NCBI GenBank assembly: GCA_000004695.1
Contig: CM000150.2
Location: 4,640,001-4,704,000 of the forward strand
Direction: 5' to 3'
Length of the DNA stretch: 64,000 bases
Source: Dictyostelium discoideum
Taxonomy: Eukaryota
The notes under the pieces are model-generated. The model made no database searches, had not been told where the DNA came from, and saw nothing but the letters and a program-made list of their open reading frames with translations. Position 1 is the stretch's first letter. Every line of letters begins with the position of its first letter. Below are positions 16,613 through 59,014 of this stretch, one piece after another. Made by a program: the position numbers and the translations under genes.

Positions 16613-16992
16613 AATATTTAATCATGAGATAATATTTTTTTATTTTCTTAAATAAAATAATTACTCCAATAAAAATTTAGTTTTCTTTATTTCTACTTTT
16701 TTTTTTTTATTTTTTTTATTTTTGGTGTAGTAATTATTTTATTTTTGTTTTTATTTCTATTTTTTCAACCTCATTAACTCTCCTCTGTCTTAATTAGAAT
16801 TAAAACAAGTAAAAAAAAATTTCAAATAAATTAATTTTTACCAGCACACTGTTAATAATATTTTTTTTTTTTTTTTTTTTGGGAGATCTAACCACAACCA
16901 ACCTTTAATGTGGTTATTATTTTTTTTTTTCAGTGATTTCAAATTTTTAATATAAATTGATTTTTACAATAATAATAATAATTAATAATAAT

Positions 16993-17054
<62 letters not shown>

Positions 17055-17130
17055 TAATAATAATAATAAAAATAATAATAAACTGAATTGGAGAGCACTA
17101 AAATTATTAACTTGTAAAAAGTTTTTTTGA

Positions 17131-17190
17131 AGTAATTATCTCACAAGTATGGGTTAAAATTAATTTACGTTTTTATCACCCCAACAGTTT
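17131..17190 (+). promoter_or_regulatory. Conserved upstream element of the small-secreted-protein gene family, 180-240 bp 5' of the ATG.
   Basis: The element at 17131-17190, agtaattatctcacaagtatgggttaaaattaatttacgtttttatcaccccaacagttt, is about 85% identical to the reverse complement of 52388-52495. It is also found at 56740-56838 and a second time at 56877-56978. Confidence 0.5.
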
Positions 17191-17371
17191 ATTAAATAAA
17201 TTAATTTTTTATTTATAAATAATTAATATTATTTTTTTTTTTTTCTATAATAATTAATATTATTATTTTAGGTATTTAAACAATTATAAAAAAAAAATTA
17301 ATTTCATTTTCAAAAAATTTTATTCAATTGTAAATAACCAATTAAAATAAAATAAATTATTAAATTTAAAA

Positions 17372-18181
17372 ATGAAATTATTATTAGTTTTATTATCTCT
17401 TCTTTTAACATTTTCAGTATTGGTACAATCTGAAGAAGCCTATTTTGCTTTAAAAACCTATCAAGACAATGATTTTATTTTCAAATTAACTGATTCAGAA
17501 AAAATACAAAAAGCCAGAGATATTTTGTCTGGAAGTATGTTATAAATTTTAACAAACTTTAATAATAATAGTAACAATATACACGATTTTATAAAAATAT
17601 CCATATGCTAAAAATATTTTTTTATTTTTAAAATATAGAGGAAACTGAAGAAGTTCATGTAATGGGTAGAATTAGAAAGTCAAATAAAGACTATAATCCA
17701 AGTAAATATTGTTTTGACTTTTAATTAATTTTTTTATAATTATTTTACTAATTTCATTTCATCACTTATAGAGTATTCCTTTCATATTGACCCAGATACA
17801 GTCACATTTTTCAGTATGGCCATTGAAGTTTGTGATGCTACAGCTAGTTATGTAGAAGATTACCTTGATGAGGCCTGTGGTGGTGAGTATTTTAATATAT
17901 AAATTATAAAATTTTAATTAAAAACTAATACAATATTATTATTATTATTATTATTATTATTTTTTTTTATTTTTTTTTTATTTTTTTTATAAAATAAATA
18001 ATAGCTTTCCTCCCAGGGTATGTATTTAATTAAATATAATTTTGAAAAAATTAAAAACTACAATTTGATTAACACATATTTTTTTATAAAAAAAAAAAAT
18101 ATATATATAAATAATAAATGATTCAATAGTTGCTTCTGGTGTCCATGGGCTTCAAAGCTAACAAAAGAAATTAAAGTTTAA
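17372..18181 (+). CDS. Small secreted protein, about 135 aa, paralogous to the genes at 51403..52188 and 55724..56533. Five-exon model: 17372..17534, 17639..17701, 17772..17882, 18004..18016 (a 13-nt micro-exon), 18130..18181.
   Basis: Exon 1 encodes [55 protein letters not shown] (a signal peptide) and ends at GTATGT in phase 1. Exon 2 encodes [21 protein letters not shown] and ends at GTAAAT. Exon 3 encodes [38 protein letters not shown] and ends at GTGAGT. The micro-exon CTTTCCTCCCAGG encodes AFLPG and ends at GTATGT. Exon 5 encodes CFWCPWASKLTKEIKV and then stops. Exon lengths of 163/63/111/13/52 match the two paralogs almost exactly. Confidence 0.7.
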
Positions 18182-18842
18182 GAGTTAAATCAAATTAGCC
18201 ATGATAAATCAAATTAAATAATTTTTAAAAAAATTATTAATAAAGTTTTTTTTAACTAAAGTTTTTATAAAAAAAAATATGTATATTCTTTATAAAATAT
18301 TTTCTTGTTTTTAAATACTGCACTTCTTTGTGATGGTTATTTCAATGGATTTTAATGGTTTTACATAAATCATAAATAAATGAAACAATATCAGATGAAA
18401 TGACTTTTTCAACAAAACTATAACTACATTCAAAAGAGGTATTTTCTAACTATATGTATATTTTGTCAAGGTTTAATGTGGCTGCTGAAATTAATATTGT
18501 AATTCTAGCAGACATAAGTCCATATTAATTTTGGCATGGGACACTTGGAACATAAATCCTATAGGCACCTATAGGATATTACAAAATCAAAACTTTGTTT
18601 ATACCTTAATTACCAAATTATACCTTGATCTATATTTTTACCAACATCAGCAAAGTAACTTATATGAGGAATACCTCTATCACCATAATAACATCAATAC
18701 ATTACTTTGGTATTAATTCCCATGCAACTCTATCTCGACCTTTTATTGAGGGGTAAAATTGTACAAAAAGATCATATGTTTTAACATCAGAGTATAAAAA
18801 CAGTGATATTTTACCACTTCAATCTGGCACTGGATCATAAAT

Positions 18843-49326: not shown

Positions 49327-49366
<40 letters not shown>

Positions 49367-50015
49367 CATGCCAAATCACATTTTATTATTATCGTGTGGC
49401 TTTGGGTTTTTTGTATAAATAAAAAAAAAATATGAAATACACGATTTTGTGCAGGATTGTGGAGCGAATATTAAAAAAAAAAAAAATACCATTTGACACA
49501 AAGAAATTGTTTCTAAAAATATATTTTTTTTTGTTGCTTCCATTTTATTTTCTTTTTTTTTTTTTTATTTTATTTTTAATTTTTTTTTTCATTTTTTTTT
49601 ATTTTTTTTGCTGTTCAAAGTTTGGGGTGCAATTTTCAGTTTTTTTTAGATTTTTGAGTGGAGTCTTAAAGTTTTTTTTTCATTGCAAAAAAAATTTTCA
49701 CTTTTTTATGAATAGAAAATTAATAATAAAAAAAAAAGGTATTTTTATCTTCTTTTAAATTTGTTTAAATCAAAATAAATTTATTTTGTTTATTTTATTT
49801 TTATTTTTATTTTTATTTTTATTTTTATTTTTATTTTTTTTATTTTTATTTTTTTATATAAATATATATATATGCTTATAAAAAAAAAAAAAAATAAAGT
49901 TAAATAAAAAAAAATAATGGAGCCATTATTATAAATAAAAAACATCAAAATAATACTATAAAAGGTAAATATTTTCTGGTTTTTTTTTCAATTTCTAATT
50001 TTTTAATTTTTAATT

Positions 50016-50046
<31 letters not shown>

Positions 50047-50186
50047 GAAATTGTTTTTTTAAATTTAAATTTAATTTTTTTTTCATATATCTCTTTTTTT
50101 TTTATTAATCTTATTTAATATTTATTATTATTATTTTTTTTGTTTAAGTAACAAAAAAAAAAAAAAAAAAAAAAAAAGTATTTAGA

Positions 50187-50444
50187 ATGACACAAAACAT
50201 AAAAGAAAAGAATACTCACAATCACCATTATCAGTAATCAATATATAGAAGATACTCAATTAATTAGAGCTTTACAAAGAGTATTACCAGCTAAAATTCT
50301 CAAAGAGATTGAAGGTGATTTAACACAATTTGGTGAACGTGTTGTTAAGGATATTTTAGAATTAGGTAGAGCTTCTGAAAATAATCCACCAAAATTAATT
50401 CAATATGATGCATGGGGAAAGTAAGTTTTTCATTTATTTCTTTA

Positions 50445-50481
<37 letters not shown>

Positions 50482-51199
50482 TAATAATAAAAAATATTAA
50501 AAAAAAATTAAATAGGAGAATTGATAAAATTGTAGTTGATGAATCATGGAATAAATTAAAAGATATTGGATGCTCAGAAGGATTAGTATCAATTGGATAT
50601 GAAAGAAAATATCAAGAATATAGTAGAATTTATCAATATATAAAGATTTATTTATTTGCATGTTCATCAGCAGTATTTGATTGTCCAATGTCAATGACTG
50701 ATGGTGCAGCACGTTTAATTGAATTGTATGGTGATAAAGGAATGAAGGAGGATGAATATAAACATGAAGGTCAATGGATGACAGAGAAAACTGGTGGATC
50801 TGATGTTTCAAAATCTGAGACCATTGCTGTTAGCAGTGGTAGTGGTGATGGTAAAACATGCAATCTTAGTGGTTACAAGTTATGAATGGCGATATGGAAT
50901 ACGCAGAATCTAATTCACGTAGATTCGCTTATTTAATGGCTCAAACTTATATGGCATCGCTTTTATTAGAACATGCAGTTTGGTCAAAGGATGAATTGGA
51001 TGCTCAGGTCGCTGAAAGATGGTGTTTTGTTAAACTTGAAAATGGAAAAACTAATAAAAACTCTACAATTTCATTCACTGATGTTGATGAAAAATGGAGA
51101 GAATTAGACATTAAATTAGCTTTGGATTTAAATGAACATGGTCAACCAAAATTAGGTACCTATGATATTAATTCAACAAAATTAAGATCAAAATATTAA
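50187..51199 (+). pseudogene. AidB-like acyl-CoA dehydrogenase pseudogene, the degenerate duplicate of 53514..55492.
   Basis: Exon 1 carries a 33-bp deletion and a frameshift, giving MTQNIKEKNTHNHHYQ* with a premature TAA at about 50235. Exon 2 (50515-50885) lacks FISRDPKTFWTS. It jumps from ...CNLSGYK directly to VMNGDMEYAESNS... via an internal deletion of about 900 bp that creates a stop (GYKL*). The C-terminal 105 codons (50882-51199) are otherwise identical to the intact copy. Confidence 0.65.
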
Positions 51200-51261
51200 T
51201 AAAACAATAAAATGTTGTATAAAGAAATTAAAAAAAAAAAAAAAAGATCCTTTTTAAATAA

Positions 51262-51295
<34 letters not shown>

Positions 51296-51402
51296 TATTT
51301 TTTTTTTATAAAAACTTTTGTTTAATAAACTTTATTATTAAATATTTAAGTATTTAATTTGATTAAATTTAATCATGAGTAATTTAATTTTACTCTTATA
51401 GT

Positions 51403-51592
51403 TTAAATTTTAATTTCTCTTGTTAGTTTTGAAGACCATGGGCACCAGAAGCAACTATCGAATTATTTATTTTTTATATATTTTTATTTTTTTTATTTTT
51501 TATTTTAAAAAAAAAAATTAGTAAATTAATCGAATTGTATTTTTCAAAATTTTATTTAATTAAATACATACCCTGGGAGGAAAGCTATTATT

Positions 51593-51658
<66 letters not shown>

Positions 51659-52188
51659 TATTAGTTTTAAATAAAAAGTTTAAATTTTATATGTTATAAT
51701 ACTCACCACCACAGGCCTCATCAAGGTGATCTTCTACATAAATAGTTGAAGCATCACAAACTTCAATAGCCATGGAAAAAAATGTGATTGTATCTGGGTC
51801 AAGAATAAAGGAATACTCTATAAGTGATGAAATGAAATTAATAAAATAATTATAAAATAATAATTAAAAGTCAATAGAATATTTACTTGGATTATAGCTT
51901 TCAGGTCTCTTTCTAATTCTACCCATTACATGAACTTCATTGGTTTCCTCTATTTTAAAAATTAAATAAAAATATTGTTAACAATATGAATGTTTTTTTG
52001 TTAAAAATAATATAAAACTTACTTCCAGACAAAATATCTCTGGCTTTTTTAATTTTTTCTGAATCTGTTAATTTGAAAATAAAATCATTATGGTCACCAT
52101 GGGTTTTTAAACCAAAATAGGCTGTTTCAGATTGTACCAATACTGAAAATATTAAAAGAAGAGATAATAAAACAAATAATAATTTCAT
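51403..52188 (-). CDS. Small secreted protein, a paralog of 17372..18181. Five exons: 52188..52023, 51949..51887, 51817..51707, 51594..51582 (13-nt micro-exon), 51454..51403.
   Basis: The protein is [56 protein letters not shown] | [21 protein letters not shown] | [38 protein letters not shown] | AFLPG | [16 protein letters not shown]. The donors are GTAAGT/GTAAAT/GTGAGT/GTATGT. Exon sizes of 166/63/111/13/52 are the same as the paralogs. Confidence 0.7.
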
Positions 52189-52387
52189 TTTTTAATTGAG
52201 TTTTTAATTTGTTGTTTATAATTGAATTTGAATTTTAATTTGATAATGAAATAATTTAATTTTCAATTGTTTAAATACTTTTGGAAAAAAAAGAATAATA
52301 ATAATAATTATAATTAATATTAATTATTAATTAAAAAAAAAAAAAAAATAATAATATTAATTATTATTATTAATAAAAAATAATTTC

Positions 52388-52486
52388 CAAACTTCTAGGA
52401 TGATAAAAACGTAAAATAATTTTAACCCACACTTGCGAGATAATTACTCCAAAACTTGTAATTTTATCCAATTGGGTGTGTTATTA

Positions 52487-52495
<9 letters not shown>
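52388..52495 (-). promoter_or_regulatory. Conserved upstream element of the small-secreted-protein gene, 200-300 bp 5' of ATG 52188. It contains CCCACAC and GGGTGTG boxes about 47 bp apart.
   Basis: The element is conserved with 17131-17190 (inverted copy). In copy B it is tandemly doubled (56740-56838 and 56877-56978). Confidence 0.5.
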
Positions 52496-52557
<62 letters not shown>

Positions 52558-53372
52558 TTTTATTTGTTTTATTTTTCTTTTTTTTTTTCATAATAAAAAA
52601 ATCTTCACGCAAAAAACACCACACATCCAATTAAAAAAAAAAAAAAAAAATCTTTCTGTGAAGATTTAATAAATCTAATTATTATAATTTAATGACAAAA
52701 AAAAAAGGATAATTATATAATTAAATTGAAATTTCTTTGAATTTTTTATAGTGAAAATTATATATTATTAATTTTTTTTTTTTTGAAAAAAAAAGAAGTT
52801 CTTAAAAATAAAATTGATGACTTTTTTTTGAAAATCTTGTTTTGATGATTAGGGGAAAATATCTAAAAAAATCAAAAAAAAAAAAAAAAAAAAAAAAAGT
52901 TTTATTAAAAAAAAAACAAAAAAAAACAAAAAAAAAAAGTATTTTTGTCTTCTTTTAATTTGTTCAAATCAAAATAAATTTATTTTGTTTATTTTATTTT
53001 ATTTTTATTTATTTTTTATTTGATTTTATTTTTTTTATATAAATATAATTATTTTTTTTTTTTTTTTAATAAGCATATAAAGTTAAATAAAAAAAATAAT
53101 GGAGACATTATTATAAATAAAAACATCAAAAGAATACTATAGAAGGAAAATATTTTCTGGTTTGAAATTTCAATATTTTATTTTTTAATTTTTATTATTT
53201 TCCAAAAAAAAATTACGTTTTGATGATTTTTTTTTTATTACCATCTTTCTGTTTAGGATTAATAAATTAAGGAAAATATGTCGCTATTTTTTTTTTCAAT
53301 TTCTAATTTTTTAATTTTTAATTTATTTTATTTTTTTTTTTTTTTTTTTTAAAAATTTTTTTTTTTAAATTT

Positions 53373-53406
<34 letters not shown>

Positions 53407-53513
53407 CTTTTTTCATATATCTCTTTTTTTTTATTAATCTTATTTAATATTTATTATTATTATTTTTTTTGTTTAAGAAACAAAAAAAAAAAAAAAAAAA
53501 AAAAGTATTAAGA

Positions 53514-53806
53514 ATGGCCCAAAACATAAAAGAAAAGAATACTCAAACTGGTTATTCTGGTAGAGAGTATTTCCAACAACAATCACCATTATTAGGTAAT
53601 CAATATATAGAAGATACTCAATTAATTAGAGCTTTACAAAGAGTATTACCAGCTAAAATTCTCAAAGAGATTGAAGGTGATTTAACACAATTTGGTGAAC
53701 GTGTTGTTAAGGATATTTTAGAATTAGGTAGAGCTTCTGAAAATAATCCACCAAAATTAATTCAATATGATGCATGGGGAAAGTAAGTTTTTCATTTATT
53801 TCTTTA

Positions 53807-53840
<34 letters not shown>

Positions 53841-55492
53841 TAATAATAAAAAATATTAAAAAAAAATTAAATAGGAGAATTGATAAAATTGTAGTTGATG
53901 AATCATGGAATAAATTAAAAGATATTGGATGTTCAGAAGGATTAGTATCAATTGGATATGAAAGAAAATATCAAGAATATAGTAGAATTTATCAATATAT
54001 AAAGATTTATTTATTTGCATGTTCATCAGCAGTATTTGATTGTCCAATGTCAATGACTGATGGTGCAGCACGTTTAATTGAATTGTATGGTGATAAAGGA
54101 ATGAAGGAGGATGAATATAAACATTTCATATCACGTGATCCAAAGACATTTTGGACAAGTGGTCAATGGATGACAGAGAAAACTGGTGGATCTGATGTTT
54201 CAAAATCTGAGACCATTGCAGTTAGCAGTGGTAGTGGTGATGGTAAAACATGCAATCTTAGTGGTTACAAGTATTTCACATCAGCAACTACCTCAGAGGG
54301 TGCAATGGTATTGGCAAGAGATGTTGACGATGCAAAAACCATGAAAGGTGCAGTTGAGGGATCCAGAGGTTTATCAGTTTACTTTATAAAATTAAGAAAA
54401 CCAAATGGTGAACTCGATCGTATTCAAGTTCACAAGTTAAAGAATAAATTTGGAACAAAAGCAGTACCAACCGCAGAACTTGAGTTAATGGGTACACCAG
54501 CAGTTAGAGTTGGACCAAAAGGTAGAGGTGTACCAGTGATTGCCTCCATATTAAATATCACTAGAATTCATAATGTAATCCATTCAGCAGCCACAATGAG
54601 AAGATGTGTTGCAATTGTAAGAGATTTCGCTCATCGTCGTACTGTATTTGGTAAATTATTAAAAGATAACTTATTATATCTTTCAACATTGGCAGAGATG
54701 GAATTAGAATTTAGAGCTAGTTTACATTTACTTTTGGATGTTACCTTATTGTTGGGTAAGAGTGAACGTATTGTTGAAAAACAATCATCAAATAGTGAAG
54801 AACAAAAACAAATTGACCTCCTATTACGTATTGTTACACCACTTTCAAAATTGTATACTGCAAAACAAAGTGTTACAGTCGCATCAGAGGCTATTGAAGC
54901 ATTGGGTGGCACTGGTTATATGGAAGATTCCGATATGCCACGTCTATTTAGAGACACTCAAGTAACATCGATTTGGGAAGGTACAACCAACGTTTTATCA
55001 ATGGATATTTGGAGAACCTTAAAAGAACCATTAACAATTAAATTCTATTTCCAATCAATTGAAAATCGTTTAATTCAAGCAAATAAATTATTAAATAATG
55101 ATAACAATATTCAAAAAGTTATTTCAGTAATTAGAGAAGCAATGAAAACTATTCGTTCAGTTATTGATAAAGTTATGAATGGTGATATGGAATACGCAGA
55201 ATCTAATTCACGTAGATTCGCTTATTTAATGGCACAAACTTATATGGCATCGCTTTTATTAGAACATGCAGTTTGGTCAAAGGATGAATTGGATGCTCAG
55301 GTCGCTGAAAGATGGTGTTTTGTTAAACTTGAAAATGGAAAAACTAATAAAAACTCTACAATTTCATTCACTGATGTTGATGAAAAATGGAGAGAATTAG
55401 ACATTAAATTAGCTTTGGATTTAAATGAACATGGTCAACCAAAATTAGGTACCTATGATATTAATTCAACAAAATTAAGATCAAAATATTAA
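53514..55492 (+). CDS. Acyl-CoA dehydrogenase family protein of the AidB type. Two exons: 53514..53782 and 53875..55492.
   Basis: Exon 1 encodes MAQNIKEKNTQTGYSGREYFQQQSPLLGNQYIEDTQLIRALQRVLPAKILKEIEGDLTQFGERVVKDILELGRASENNPPKLIQYDAWG and ends at a GTAAGT donor (53783-53788) in phase 2. The acceptor aaatAG sits at 53873-53874. Exon 2 encodes KRIDKIVVDESWNKLKD...GQWMTEKTGGSDVSKSETIAV...KYFTSA...ELMGTPAVRVGPKGRGV...ALGGTGYMEDSDMPRLFRDTQVTSIWEGTTNVLSMDIWR.... The junction PPKLIQYDAWGK|RIDKIVVDESW aligns with E. coli AidB PPELLRYDAQGRRLDDVRFHPAW. MTEKTGGSDV aligns with AidB MTEKQGGSDV. LPRLFRD..V.SIWEG..N aligns with AidB LPRLYREMPVNSIWEGSGN. I prefer the ATG at 53514 over the track's upstream Met at 53469. 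Confidence 0.85.
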
Positions 55493-55555
55493 TAAAACAA
55501 TAAAATGTTGTATAAAGAAATTAAAAAAAAAAAAAAAAAGATCCTTTTTAAATAA

Positions 55556-55616
<61 letters not shown>

Positions 55617-55723
55617 TATTTTTTTTTTATAAAAACTTTTGTTTAATAAACTTTATTATTAAATATTTAAGTATTTAATTTGATTAAATTTAATCATGAG
55701 TAATTTAATTTTACTCTTATAGT

Positions 55724-55905
55724 TTAAACTTTAATTTCTCTTGTTAATTTTGAAGACCATGGGCACCAGAAGCAACTATCGAATTATTTATTTTTTATAT
55801 ATTTTTATTTTTTATTTTAAAAAAAAAAAATTAGTAAATTAATCGAATTGTATTTTTCAAAATTTTATTTAATTAAATACATACCCTGGGAGGAAAGCTA
55901 TTATT

Positions 55906-56004
<99 letters not shown>

Positions 56005-56533
56005 TATTAGTTTTTAATAAAAAGTTTAAATTTTATATGTTATAATACTCACCACCACAGGCCTCATCAAGGTGATCTTCTACATAAATAGTTGAAGCAT
56101 CACAAACTTCAATAGCCATGGCAAAAAATGTGATTGTATCTGGGTCAAGAATAAAGGAAAACTCTATAAGTGATGAAATGAAATTAATAAATAATTATAA
56201 AATAATAATTAAAAGTCAATAGAATATTTACTTGGATTATAGCTTTCAGGTCTCTTTTTAATTCTACCCATTACATGAACTTCATTGCTTTCCTCTATTT
56301 TAAAAATTAAATAAAAATATTGTTAACAATATGAATGTTTTTTTGTTAAAAATAATATATAACTTACTTCCAGACAAAATATCTCTGGCCATTTGAATTT
56401 TTTTGGAATCTGTTAATTTGAAAATAAAATCATTATGGTCACCATGGGTTTTTAAACCAAAATAGGCTGTTTCAGATTGTACCAATACTGAAAATATTAA
56501 AAGAAGAGATAATAAAACAAATAACAATTTCAT
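55724..56533 (-). CDS. Small secreted protein, copy B paralog. Five exons: 56533..56368, 56294..56232, 56163..56053, 55897..55885 (micro-exon), 55775..55724.
   Basis: The protein is almost identical to the 51403..52188 copy. Exon 1 is [56 protein letters not shown]. It has the same splice signals and the same 13-nt micro-exon, cctgggaggaaag, on the plus strand. Confidence 0.7.
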
Positions 56534-56975
56534 TTTTTAATGGAGTTTTTAATTTGTTGTTTATAATTGAATTTTAATTTTAATTTGATAATGAAATAAT
56601 TTTATTTTCAATTGTTTAAATACTTTTGGAAAAAAAAATAATAATAATAATTATAATTAATATTAATTATTAATTAAAAAAAAAAAAAAAAATAATAATA
56701 TTAATTATTATTATTAATAAAAAAAATATTTTCCAAATTGCTAGGATGATAAAAACGTAAAATAATTTTAACCCACACTTGCGAGATAATTACTCCAAAA
56801 CTTGTAATTTTATCCAATTGGATGTGTTATTATTTTTATTATTATTATTATTATTATTAATAAAAAAAATAATTTCCAAACTGTTGGGATGATAAAAACC
56901 TAAAATAATTTTAACCCACACTTACGAGATAATTACTCCAAAACTTGTAATTTTATCCAATTGGGTGTGTTATTA

Positions 56976-57006
<31 letters not shown>

Positions 57007-57434
57007 TTTTATTTGTTTTATTTTTTTTTTTTTTTTTTTCATAATAAAAAAATCTTCACACAAAAAACACCACACATCCAATTAAAAAAAAAAAAAAAAT
57101 CTTTCTGTGAAGATTTAATAAATCTAATTATTATAATTTAATGACAAAAAAAAAGGATAATTAAATAATTAAATTGAAATTTCTTTGAATTTTTTAAAGT
57201 GAAAATTATATGTTATTAATTTTTTTTTTTTTTTTTGAAAAAAAAAGAAGTTCTTAAAAATAAAATTGATGACTTTTTTTTGAAAATCTTGTTTTGATGA
57301 TGATTAGGGGAAAATATCTAAAAAAAATCAAAAAAAAAAAAAAAAAAAAAAAAAGTTTTATTAAAAAAAAAACAAAAAAACAAAAAAAAAAAAAAAAACC
57401 CTCAAACTCAATTTCCAAAGCAAAATCTTAAACA

Positions 57435-59014
57435 ATGACTAGTTTAACATTATATTTGATTATATTTTCAATTATCTTATATTTGTTTGTAAATGTAATT
57501 TTTTATTTTTTTTTTTTTATTTTTTTTTTCAAAAATTGATTTATCTTTATCTTAAAACTAATTTTTTTTTTATTTATTTTAAATTAATTAACTAGAGAAA
57601 TAAAAGAAAAAATTTAAAAATTCCAGGACCTAATGGAATTCCAATTTTCGGTAATTTATTATCTTTAAGTGGTGAAATGCATTTAACACTACAAGAATGG
57701 TATAAAACTTATGGATCTGTATTTTCCATTAGAATGGGTAATATTGATACAGTGGTTTTAACTGAATATCCAACTATTAGAAAAGCATTTGTTGATAATT
57801 CATTAGCATTTGCAAGTAGATATCAATTGAAAAGTAGAGTTGTATTAACTGGTGCTAAAGATCTTGCTATTCAAAATGGTGAAATTCATTCATTATTGAA
57901 AAAAGTAGTTTTATCAGAAATGACTACAACCAAAATCAAAAGAATGGAAATTCATATAATTAAAGAAACTGAAAAAATTTTAAAAATTTTAGATAAACAT
58001 GCTGAACGAGGTGAACCATTTATAATTAATAATTATTTAAATATGTTTTCAATGAATGTTATACTTCGATTTTTATTAGGTATTGATTATCCATATGAAA
58101 ATGTTGATGAAACAGTTGGATATGTTAAAAGCATTAAAAGTTTCTTTGCAGTTGCTGGTCTCCCAATTCTATCAGACTTTATTCCTATCCCATTGAAAAA
58201 ATCTGGTGTTTTCTTTGACTCTTATAAAGAATTAGAAATTGAAACTGATAAATTAATTGAAAAATTTAAAAAATCTAGAAATGAGAAAATTGAAAATGGA
58301 ACATACAATGAAGAAGAAGATGAATCAATTCTATCAAAATTATTAAAAGAATATGAACATGGTAATATCACATGGGAATGTGTTTCACATACATGTATTG
58401 ATATAATTTCCGCTGGTACTGATACTTCTGCAAATACATTGGTTATGGCATTGATTGAATTAATAAATAATCAAGAAATTCAATCTAAAGCTTTTTCAAG
58501 TATTAGATCATCATGTTTAAATGATTCAAATGATGATGATGATGATGATGAAATTGTAATCACTCATAGTAAATATCGTTCATTATTACCTTACATTTCA
58601 ATGATAATTAAAGAAACATTTAGAAAACATCCAATTGCTTTACTTGGTTTACCACATGTTACAACTGAAGATGTTGAAATTGATGGATATAAAATTGAAG
58701 CTGGTACATATATCATTCAAAATATTTTCTCAAGTCATAGAAGTGATAAAATTTTCCAATCACCAAATGAATTCATTCCAGAAAGATTCTTTGAATCATC
58801 TCAAAATCAAGGTTTAATTCATTTTGGTTTAGGTGTTAGAGACTGTGTTGGAAAGTCATTAGCAGAGTGTGAAATTTTCACATTAATTGCAACCTTATTA
58901 AATAGATATCAATTTATTAATCCAAATAATTCAAAAAAATTAAATGATATTGGTACATTTGGTTTGGCTCAAGTTTGTCCAGATACTAATATTATTTTAA
59001 AAAAAAGAATTTAA
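57435..59014 (+). CDS. Cytochrome P450 monooxygenase. Two exons: 57435..57488 and 57596..59014.
   Basis: Exon 1 encodes MTSLTLYLIIFSIILYLF (a membrane anchor) and ends at a GTAAAT donor (57489) in phase 0. The acceptor aactAG sits at 57594-57595. Exon 2 encodes RNKRKNLKIPGPNGIPIFGNLLSL (the proline-rich PPGP hinge), ...AGTDTSANTL (the I-helix AGxDTT), ...ETFRKHP (ExxR), ...PERF..., and FGLGVRDCVGKSLAECEI (the heme-binding FxxGxRxCxG). Confidence 0.85.

Follow-up and report, generated by a model that had tools for sequence, protein, structure and literature searches.

Does the stretch of Dictyostelium discoideum chromosome 1 analyzed here (assembly GCA_000004695.1, contig CM000150.2, positions 4,640,001 to 4,704,000 of the forward strand; the whole 64,000 nucleotides are referred to as the window) hold a genuine tandem duplication in which one gene copy has decayed, and if so, where and how did that duplication arise? 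The locus in question is a pair of adjacent units between window positions 49.7 and 57.4 kb, called unit A and unit B, each of which carries sequence of an acyl-CoA dehydrogenase (ACAD) gene followed by a gene for a small secreted protein of the BP74_N family. The data presented in this study confirm that the pair is a true tandem segmental duplication. The explanation favored here, to which a probability of about 0.9 is given, is that a tandem duplication took place between poly(A) runs in the ancestry of NC4 and was followed by decay of one ACAD copy, with the small genes remaining intact.

Self-BLAST of the window returned three collinear plus/plus blocks (49.7-53.1 against 52.9-57.5 kb), so the two units lie next to each other in the same orientation, head-to-tail:

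49739..52938 (3.2 kb): unit A, with the ACAD pseudogene and the intact BP74_N gene spA, collinear with unit B
52939..57398 (4.46 kb): unit B, with the intact ACAD gene DDB_G0270352 and the BP74_N gene cmbC (DDB_G0269116), called spB here

When 49738-52938 was globally aligned against 52939-57396, 57 mismatches were found in 3,141 aligned positions (98.2% identity), or 43 in 2,757 (1.6%) counting just the positions at least 5 nt away from gaps. The same alignment contains 40 indel events amounting to 1,376 nt, mostly one 901-bp gap, and most of the events are length differences of microsatellites and homopolymers; beyond the unit boundaries the alignment drops to noise. Two collinear neighbors in the same orientation with one novel junction between a right end and a left end are what is expected of a tandem segmental duplication. 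An earlier first-pass annotation of this DNA had proposed two head-to-tail units of more than 90% identity, and its limits for them (49738-52929 and 52930-57395) fall no more than 10 nt from the refined ones.

One caveat is that microsatellite-laden, AT-rich Dictyostelium DNA is hard to assemble and that the AX4 reference used here is an old Sanger assembly, which raises the concern that a single locus was wrongly expanded or that the lesions of copy A are sequencing errors. However, the 57 substitutions, 40 indels and 901-bp deletion that separate the units are beyond the reach of misassembling one locus. Additionally, the loci around the ACAD orthologues were compared in five recent assemblies (L001-L005) from a de novo Nanopore and Illumina project (PMC12745789), whose strains are AX2-214, CR116C and OT3A (D. 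discoideum from Costa Rica and Mexico), and M4B and S6B (possible cryptic species). One of the five, L003 (GCA_054883475.1), which is taken here to be AX2-214, has the same two-unit structure and reproduces the A/B junction and all three lesions of copy A base for base; over 8,180 aligned nt it differs from window positions 49500-57700 by 3 substitutions and 4 homopolymer-length gaps. Since an independent long-read assembly contains the same junction and the same lesions, which is the check on which the first-pass annotation had made its claim depend, the structure is not an assembly artefact, and an error in the reference is given next to no chance as an explanation. The three AX4/AX2 substitutions (53478, 53510 and 53519) lie within 42 nt, just upstream of and at the ACAD start of unit B, and AX2 has the ancestral state at all three, as do unit A and the outgroups. 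They are due either to clustered mutation in the AX3/AX4 line or to errors of the old reference beside a long A run.

The remaining four loci (L001, L002, L004 and L005, from two Central American isolates of D. discoideum and two isolates of D. cf. discoideum) have one unit each, in the order upstream gene, ACAD, BP74_N and cytochrome P450, and unit B corresponds to approximately 9402-13827 of L001. Copy number, which the first-pass annotation had proposed to compare, therefore varies among isolates, with two units in L003 and one in each of the others. Over 2,724 ungapped columns, A and B stand at a p-distance of 0.026 from each other, as against 0.071-0.075 for L001/L002 and 0.13-0.14 for L004/L005. 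The two units group as sisters in every sub-region, including intergenic DNA under low constraint. Ax2 and Ax3/4 were each derived independently from NC4 (PMC2643946), so a duplication and a set of lesions common to both must be older than axenic selection. Because the four other isolates are single-copy and the two units are each other's closest relatives, the duplication is placed in the NC4 lineage, and a single gain there after the split from the Central American isolates is the simplest history. The opposite history, an ancient duplication of the D. discoideum complex that was lost in the other isolates and in which concerted evolution kept A and B alike, could be drawn from the uneven divergence along the unit, with near-identical tracts such as the intergenic DNA between the ACAD and the small gene (0 of 183 nt differ) and unit B 53596-54124 (1 mismatch), which could be conversion tracts. 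However, this history requires at least 3-4 independent and precise losses in L001/L002, L004 and L005, whereas the single-copy loci have intact A runs at both breakpoint sites and no deletion scars, and A and B are sisters in all sub-regions. An ancient origin is thus considered very improbable.

If the duplication is a single gain, the next question is what joined its ends. Both outer ends and the internal junction lie in A runs:

49728..49737, forward strand: left breakpoint, an A10 run; the site reads …AATAATA(10) and then GGTATTTTTATC
52928..52938, forward strand: A/B junction, a hybrid A11 run in which the right-end …CA(11) is joined to the left-end GTATTTTTGTC; identical in the AX2 assembly (L003 9421)
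57382..57398, forward strand: right breakpoint, an A17 run; the site reads …CA(17) and then the unique flank CCCTCAAAC

In the single-copy strains, the left site has an A7 run and the right site a long A run. Between 9 and 12%, approximately, of the AT-rich noncoding positions in the window belong to A runs 8-10 nt or more in length, and two breakpoints in runs of the same type are expected by chance in about 2% of cases, which supports an exchange within poly(A) tracts. The first-pass annotation had placed the breakpoints in A/T homopolymer runs and suggested unequal crossing-over from this; the runs are indeed there, both of them poly(A), but they offer little of the homology expected for crossing-over in its classical form. 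Classical non-allelic homologous recombination uses tens to hundreds of bp of homology, whereas the two sites here share nothing but poly(A), 10 nt long at the left site and 17 nt at the right. This fits an exchange mediated by microhomology or low-complexity sequence, or a template switch. Template switching during replication is therefore no less plausible than unequal crossing-over of the classical kind, and homology of 10-17 nt is too short to tell meiotic or mitotic unequal exchange apart from slippage or template switching at replication. The right end also has a consequence for the genes. The duplicated segment stops 36 nt upstream of the cytochrome P450 ATG at 57435, and the ACAD of unit B therefore has 575 bp of native upstream sequence, preceded by a copy of the intergenic region between the small gene and the P450 gene.

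Taken together, these observations suggest the following course of events. A 4.4-kb segment of chromosome 1, which begins about 575 bp ahead of the ACAD gene and ends 36 bp short of the P450 start, would have been duplicated head-to-tail in the NC4 ancestry by an event between two poly(A) runs on the same strand, either unequal exchange or template switching during replication. The redundancy would have released one ACAD copy from selection, and the freed copy would then have gained a 34+1-bp frameshift, an in-frame loss of a conserved motif and a 901-bp, microhomology-mediated deletion of its catalytic core. The co-duplicated small BP74_N gene stayed intact in both units, and its eight residue differences are all at positions that are variable in the family.

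How old the duplication is can be stated roughly. Noncoding divergence between A and B is 1.7% (25/1,476), dS comes to 0.029 in the ACAD and 0.044 in the small gene (from very few sites), and overall the divergence is about one third of that between AX4 and the Central American isolates. With a published rate of 2.9e-11 base substitutions per site and generation (Saxer et al. 2012, tabulated in PMC6330053), the age is of the order of 10^8 generations, a rough figure that would be too high if the units come from alleles that had already diverged. The words "young" and "freshly disabled" in the first-pass annotation are thus true on an evolutionary scale only, at about 1.7% noncoding divergence and a dS of 0.03-0.04.

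It should be noted that several points count against the favored history. The duplication was seen only in the NC4-derived AX2 and AX4, which have a recent common ancestor, and no independent natural carrier was found among the loci compared. The assignment of L003 to AX2-214 is itself inferred, from 99.4% identity and the strain list of the paper, and is not stated in the assembly record. A homopolymer of 10-17 nt is short for classical homologous unequal crossing-over. Finally, divergence between the units is uneven, with 0.7% in ACAD coding sequence (6/876) and 0% in the 183 nt between the ACAD and the small gene, but 3.0% in the coding sequence of the small gene (12/405), which exceeds both its own introns (2/331, 0.6%, p=0.027) and the ACAD coding sequence (p=0.003). 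A simple neutral model with a single age does not fully explain this pattern, and either gene conversion or descent of the units from two alleles that had already diverged may be its source.

What the duplication has done to its genes is best judged from the intact copy of the ACAD, which has two exons:

53514-53782 and 53875-55492, forward strand: exons of the ACAD gene DDB_G0270352 (XP_646730.1, UniProt Q55BV1), 628 aa

The model equals XP_646730.1 exactly, in agreement with the complete two-exon gene described from the first pass. Its Pfam matches are AidB_N, Acyl-CoA_dh_M, Acyl-CoA_dh_1 and ACDH-11_C, all above thresholds, an architecture in common with Caenorhabditis elegans ACDH-11, the ACAD domain of mammalian ACAD10-ACAD11 and Escherichia coli AidB as a group. 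The nearest solved relatives are ACDH-11 (4y9j, 5e-130, aligned over the full length, with the motifs SRDPxxxWTSGQWMTEKxGGSDV and IWEGTTNV conserved) and a bacterial ACAD (6sd8, 4e-130), whereas E. coli AidB is a much more distant match (1.5e-46). The SIWEGTTNV of the unit B protein lines up with its counterparts in 4y9j, 6sd8 and 3djl; in ACADs generally, the Glu of this I-W/Y-E-G-T motif is the catalytic base. Mammalian ACAD10 and ACAD11 carry an N-terminal kinase-like (APH) region, unlike the unit B protein, in which Pfam found no such domain. The earlier label "AidB-like" is therefore acceptable at the level of domains, given the AidB_N match, but not as a statement of closest kinship, and for this predicted dehydrogenase ACDH-11/ACAD11-like is the more accurate name. 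Its dN/dS against the orthologues of the other isolates is 0.08-0.16, indicative of strong purifying selection.

The corresponding gene in unit A has three lesions:

50187..51199, forward strand: ACAD pseudogene (copy A), with the intron at 50421-50515 kept
50218..50237, forward strand: lesion 1, a 34-bp deletion after 50218 (unit B 53545-53578) and a 1-bp deletion (unit B 53595)
50766..50768, forward strand: lesion 2, GAA in place of 36 nt (unit B 54125-54160), a net loss of 33 bp, in frame
50877..50880, forward strand: lesion 3, a 901-bp frameshifting deletion (unit B 54273-55173) that leads to ...GYKL and a stop

Lesion 1 changes the frame, yielding MTQNIKEKNTHNHHYQ and then a premature TAA at 50235-50237, which is codon 17; the early stop had been recognized before, although its cause was given as a 33-bp deletion instead of the 34+1 bp found here. 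The loss of 12 codons noted in the first pass is lesion 2, in reality a 36-bp deletion with a GAA insertion, and it takes out FISRDPKTFWTS, which is conserved in ACDH-11 and 6sd8 and stands directly before GQWMTEKTGGSDV. Lesion 3 refines to 901 bp the internal deletion of about 900 bp that had been reported to fuse ...GYK to a stop. It is bounded in unit B by an AAGT microhomology (54269-54272 and 55170-55173) and eliminates residues ~222-521, that is, the middle and C-terminal ACAD domains together with the Glu of IWEGT. The surviving pieces detected by tblastn (aa 1-14, 26-90, 90-222 and 522-628) differ in frame. In the coding sequence that is retained, just 3 substitutions are derived in A and 3 in B, and homology is retained both upstream and downstream of the gene. 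The presence of the intron and flanks in copy A identifies it as an unprocessed duplicate and not a retrocopy, and from its sequence it is best classified as an unprocessed pseudogene that has presumably lost its function.

A separate annotation of the AX2 lineage predicts a 281-aa protein over this pseudogene (L003 5838-7693, equivalent to window ~49331-51199), with AidB_N and ACDH-11_C matches. This raises the alternative that the remnant is alive, as a truncated AidB_N/ACDH-11_C protein or as a regulatory transcript, and copy A does keep its full native upstream region and its intron, and over its last 107 codons it matches copy B at 99% identity. However, translation from the natural ATG ends after 16 codons, what survives of the gene is spread over three frames, and the domains for FAD and substrate binding and for catalysis are gone. 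The predicted model must begin ~850 bp upstream, in low-complexity sequence, and the AX4 annotation has no protein there, with the accessions XP_646729-31 running consecutively. The 281-aa gene call is probably an artefact of a gene finder bridging the frameshifts, and a functional remnant is regarded as very unlikely.

The small gene has fared differently, and the window holds three copies of it:

51403..52188, reverse strand: spA (DDB_G0270788), BP74_N, 134 aa; exons 52188..52023, 51949..51887, 51817..51707, 51584..51572 and 51454..51403
55724..56533, reverse strand: spB (cmbC/CaM-BP15, DDB_G0269116, Q9U7C7), BP74_N, 134 aa; exons 56533..56368, 56294..56232, 56163..56053, 55897..55885 and 55775..55724
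17372..18181, forward strand: spC (DDB_G0271074), an older inverted paralogue, ~78% identical to spA in nucleotide sequence across 1.3 kb that take in introns and flanks

spA and spB have five exons each, including a micro-exon of 13 nt, and encode an N-terminal hydrophobic leader. The product of spB is CmbC itself, and CmbC was found in conditioned buffer and in the slime sheath of NC4 (PMC7079120), which supports the description of these proteins as secreted. All three match PF23621 (BP74_N) at ~1e-50, with scores of 166.9 and 174.7 bits (gathering cut-off 27) over profile positions 1-112/114. Open reading frames and splice sites are intact in spA and spB, so the statement in the first pass that each unit still holds an intact small secreted-protein gene stands. 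The family-invariant motifs AIEVCDA and DEACGAFLPGCxWCPW are kept, in spA only with the model that uses the 13-nt micro-exon. The AX4 model of DDB_G0270788 (XP_646729.2, micro-exon 51568-51584) uses a GT donor 4 nt downstream and loses the conserved C-terminus. The GTATGT donor restores it and gives a model identical to that of AX2 (KAM9940611.1), and the reference model is probably mis-spliced.

Between spA and spB, 12 of 405 nt differ; 9 of these changes are nonsynonymous and 8 residues differ. When positions were divided by their invariance across nine bacterial and fungal BP74_N homologues, no replacement fell at the 41 invariant positions and 8.5 nonsynonymous changes fell at the 71 variable ones. 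Omega is 0-0.27 at the invariant positions and 0.84-1.46 at the variable ones, and evolution is fast in every comparison, with a dN/dS of 0.6-0.9 for the gene. The lack of any A/B change at core positions makes both genes look constrained, and we infer that both are functional. A candidate case for positive selection on the small gene was considered and set aside, since a dN/dS of 0.6-0.9 overall and ~1 at variable positions is not convincing.

Five of the 12 differences lie within 16 nt of exon 1 of spB (56390-56405) and include E44K, K47Q, K48M and a synonymous change; they are mostly derived in unit B. Conversion from spC was rejected as the source of this cluster because spC does not have those states. 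The cluster could have arisen by a complex mutation, by conversion from some other paralogue that was not seen, or under selection.

These features bear on another reading, in which the duplication was kept by selection for a second, diverging secreted protein of the CmbC type and the ACAD copy was collateral. The excess of change in small-gene coding sequence over introns and ACAD coding sequence given above would fit this, as would the predominance of nonsynonymous changes, the cluster in exon 1 of unit B, the untouched conserved residues and the existence of further paralogues in the family. However, the dN/dS between A and B (0.62 overall, 0.84 at variable positions) is not above that between orthologues (0.6-1.5), and the ratios fit neutral change at unconstrained surface positions. 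The counts are also small, and synonymous changes are raised relative to introns as well. Selective retention is considered unlikely. A more specific version holds that the duplication persists in the NC4 lineage by supplying a rapidly diverging second secreted BP74_N (CmbC) protein, with the dead ACAD as collateral of an adaptive gain in copy number. It takes the Cys-rich core of BP74_N as almost invariant, the surface positions as evolving at or above the neutral rate, and the 60-75% identity across kingdoms as suggestive of inter-kingdom transfer; this version is considered somewhat less likely still. The favored history, poly(A)-run duplication followed by loss of one redundant ACAD copy, leaves the second small gene as a neighbor that stayed intact.

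The 60-75% identity is between the Dictyostelium BP74_N proteins and those of Mucorales fungi and soil bacteria. The bacterial holders comprise myxobacteria, actinobacteria, a cyanobacterium and an alphaproteobacterium (Sorangium, Archangium, Stigmatella, Nocardia, Streptosporangium, Hassallia, Inquilinus), and AIEVCDA…DEACGAFLPGCxWCPW, including a four-Cys C-terminal motif, is nearly invariant throughout. Judged by these sequence matches, so patchy a spread suggests horizontal transfer. Many of the bacterial members are mislabeled "calmodulin", and calmodulin binding of CmbC is a "putative" label in source names only. An AlphaFold2 model of BP74_N has no significant neighbor in the PDB. A full-text literature search with the four DDB gene identifiers gave no paper, with CaM-BP15/cmbC appearing only in a microarray table and a review, and a search for "BP74" gave nothing relevant.

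The relationship of spC to the duplicated pair is older. The paralogous segment (16961-18277) extends over the BP74_N introns and 13-nt micro-exon and takes in an (AAT)n microsatellite in the flank, and a search beside spC for a third ACAD fragment found no ACAD remnant. C-like proteins occur in other isolates, and the spC duplication is therefore older than the isolate split. A fourth paralogue, DDB_G0270796, is found elsewhere on chromosome 1.

The remaining features of the units are repeats:

51257-51295 (A) and 55551-55616 (B): (AAT)n microsatellite, common to both units, length differs
51594-51657 (A) and 55907-56003 (B): (TAA)n microsatellite, in an intron, length differs
52481-52557 (A) and 56970-57006 (B): (TTA)n microsatellite, common to both units, length differs
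56699..57001: nested tandem duplication of 143 bp (2.1 copies, 94% matches) in the intergenic DNA between spB and the P450 gene, unit B only

The first-pass annotation had described the shared microsatellites as intergenic, which is correct as to the sharing but not for (TAA)n. The nested 143-bp repeat is single-copy in unit A and in L001, and its restriction to unit B indicates that it is later than the main duplication. G+C content of the window is 22%. Scans of the whole window for tRNA genes and Rfam families gave no match, so neither a tRNA-targeted retroelement nor an RNA gene explains the breakpoints.

The locus is an ordinary case of duplication and decay, in a species for which small polymorphic duplications were already documented, and it leaves the current understanding of gene duplication unchanged. 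Its value is as a fully resolved example: in a genome of extreme AT content, a short segment was duplicated in tandem, each breakpoint lies in a poly(A) run, and one gene then underwent microhomology-mediated decay while its neighbor survived. There are also practical implications, in that AX2 and AX4 hold two nearly identical genes of the cmbC type, which matters for knock-outs, RNA-seq mapping and proteomics, and in that at least one automated annotation calls the ACAD pseudogene as a gene. What invites most interest beyond this is the biology of the BP74_N/CmbC family, whose gene was duplicated along with the ACAD.

Compared with unprocessed pseudogenes in general, copy A is typical. Intron, promoter region and flanks are kept, there are several independent lesions, and the sister copy is under strong purifying selection; nothing sets it apart from the usual case except that only the co-duplicated neighbor escaped decay. 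Compared with known copy-number variants of D. discoideum, the duplication is again a head-to-tail copy of a few genes that is present or absent by isolate. One of these is on chromosome 3, a duplication of two genes that differs from one NC4 stock or wild isolate to another (Bloomfield et al. 2008, PMC2643946), and the dynamics of the tgr locus provide another setting (Holland et al. 2025, PMC12745789). Unlike the chromosome 3 duplication, the one reported here is on chromosome 1, is 4.4 kb in length and is common to AX2 and AX4, and it is below the size that array CGH detected (as a rule at least 15 kb; PMC2643946). It also differs from the known variants in being old enough, at ~1.7% noncoding divergence, for one of its genes to have decayed.

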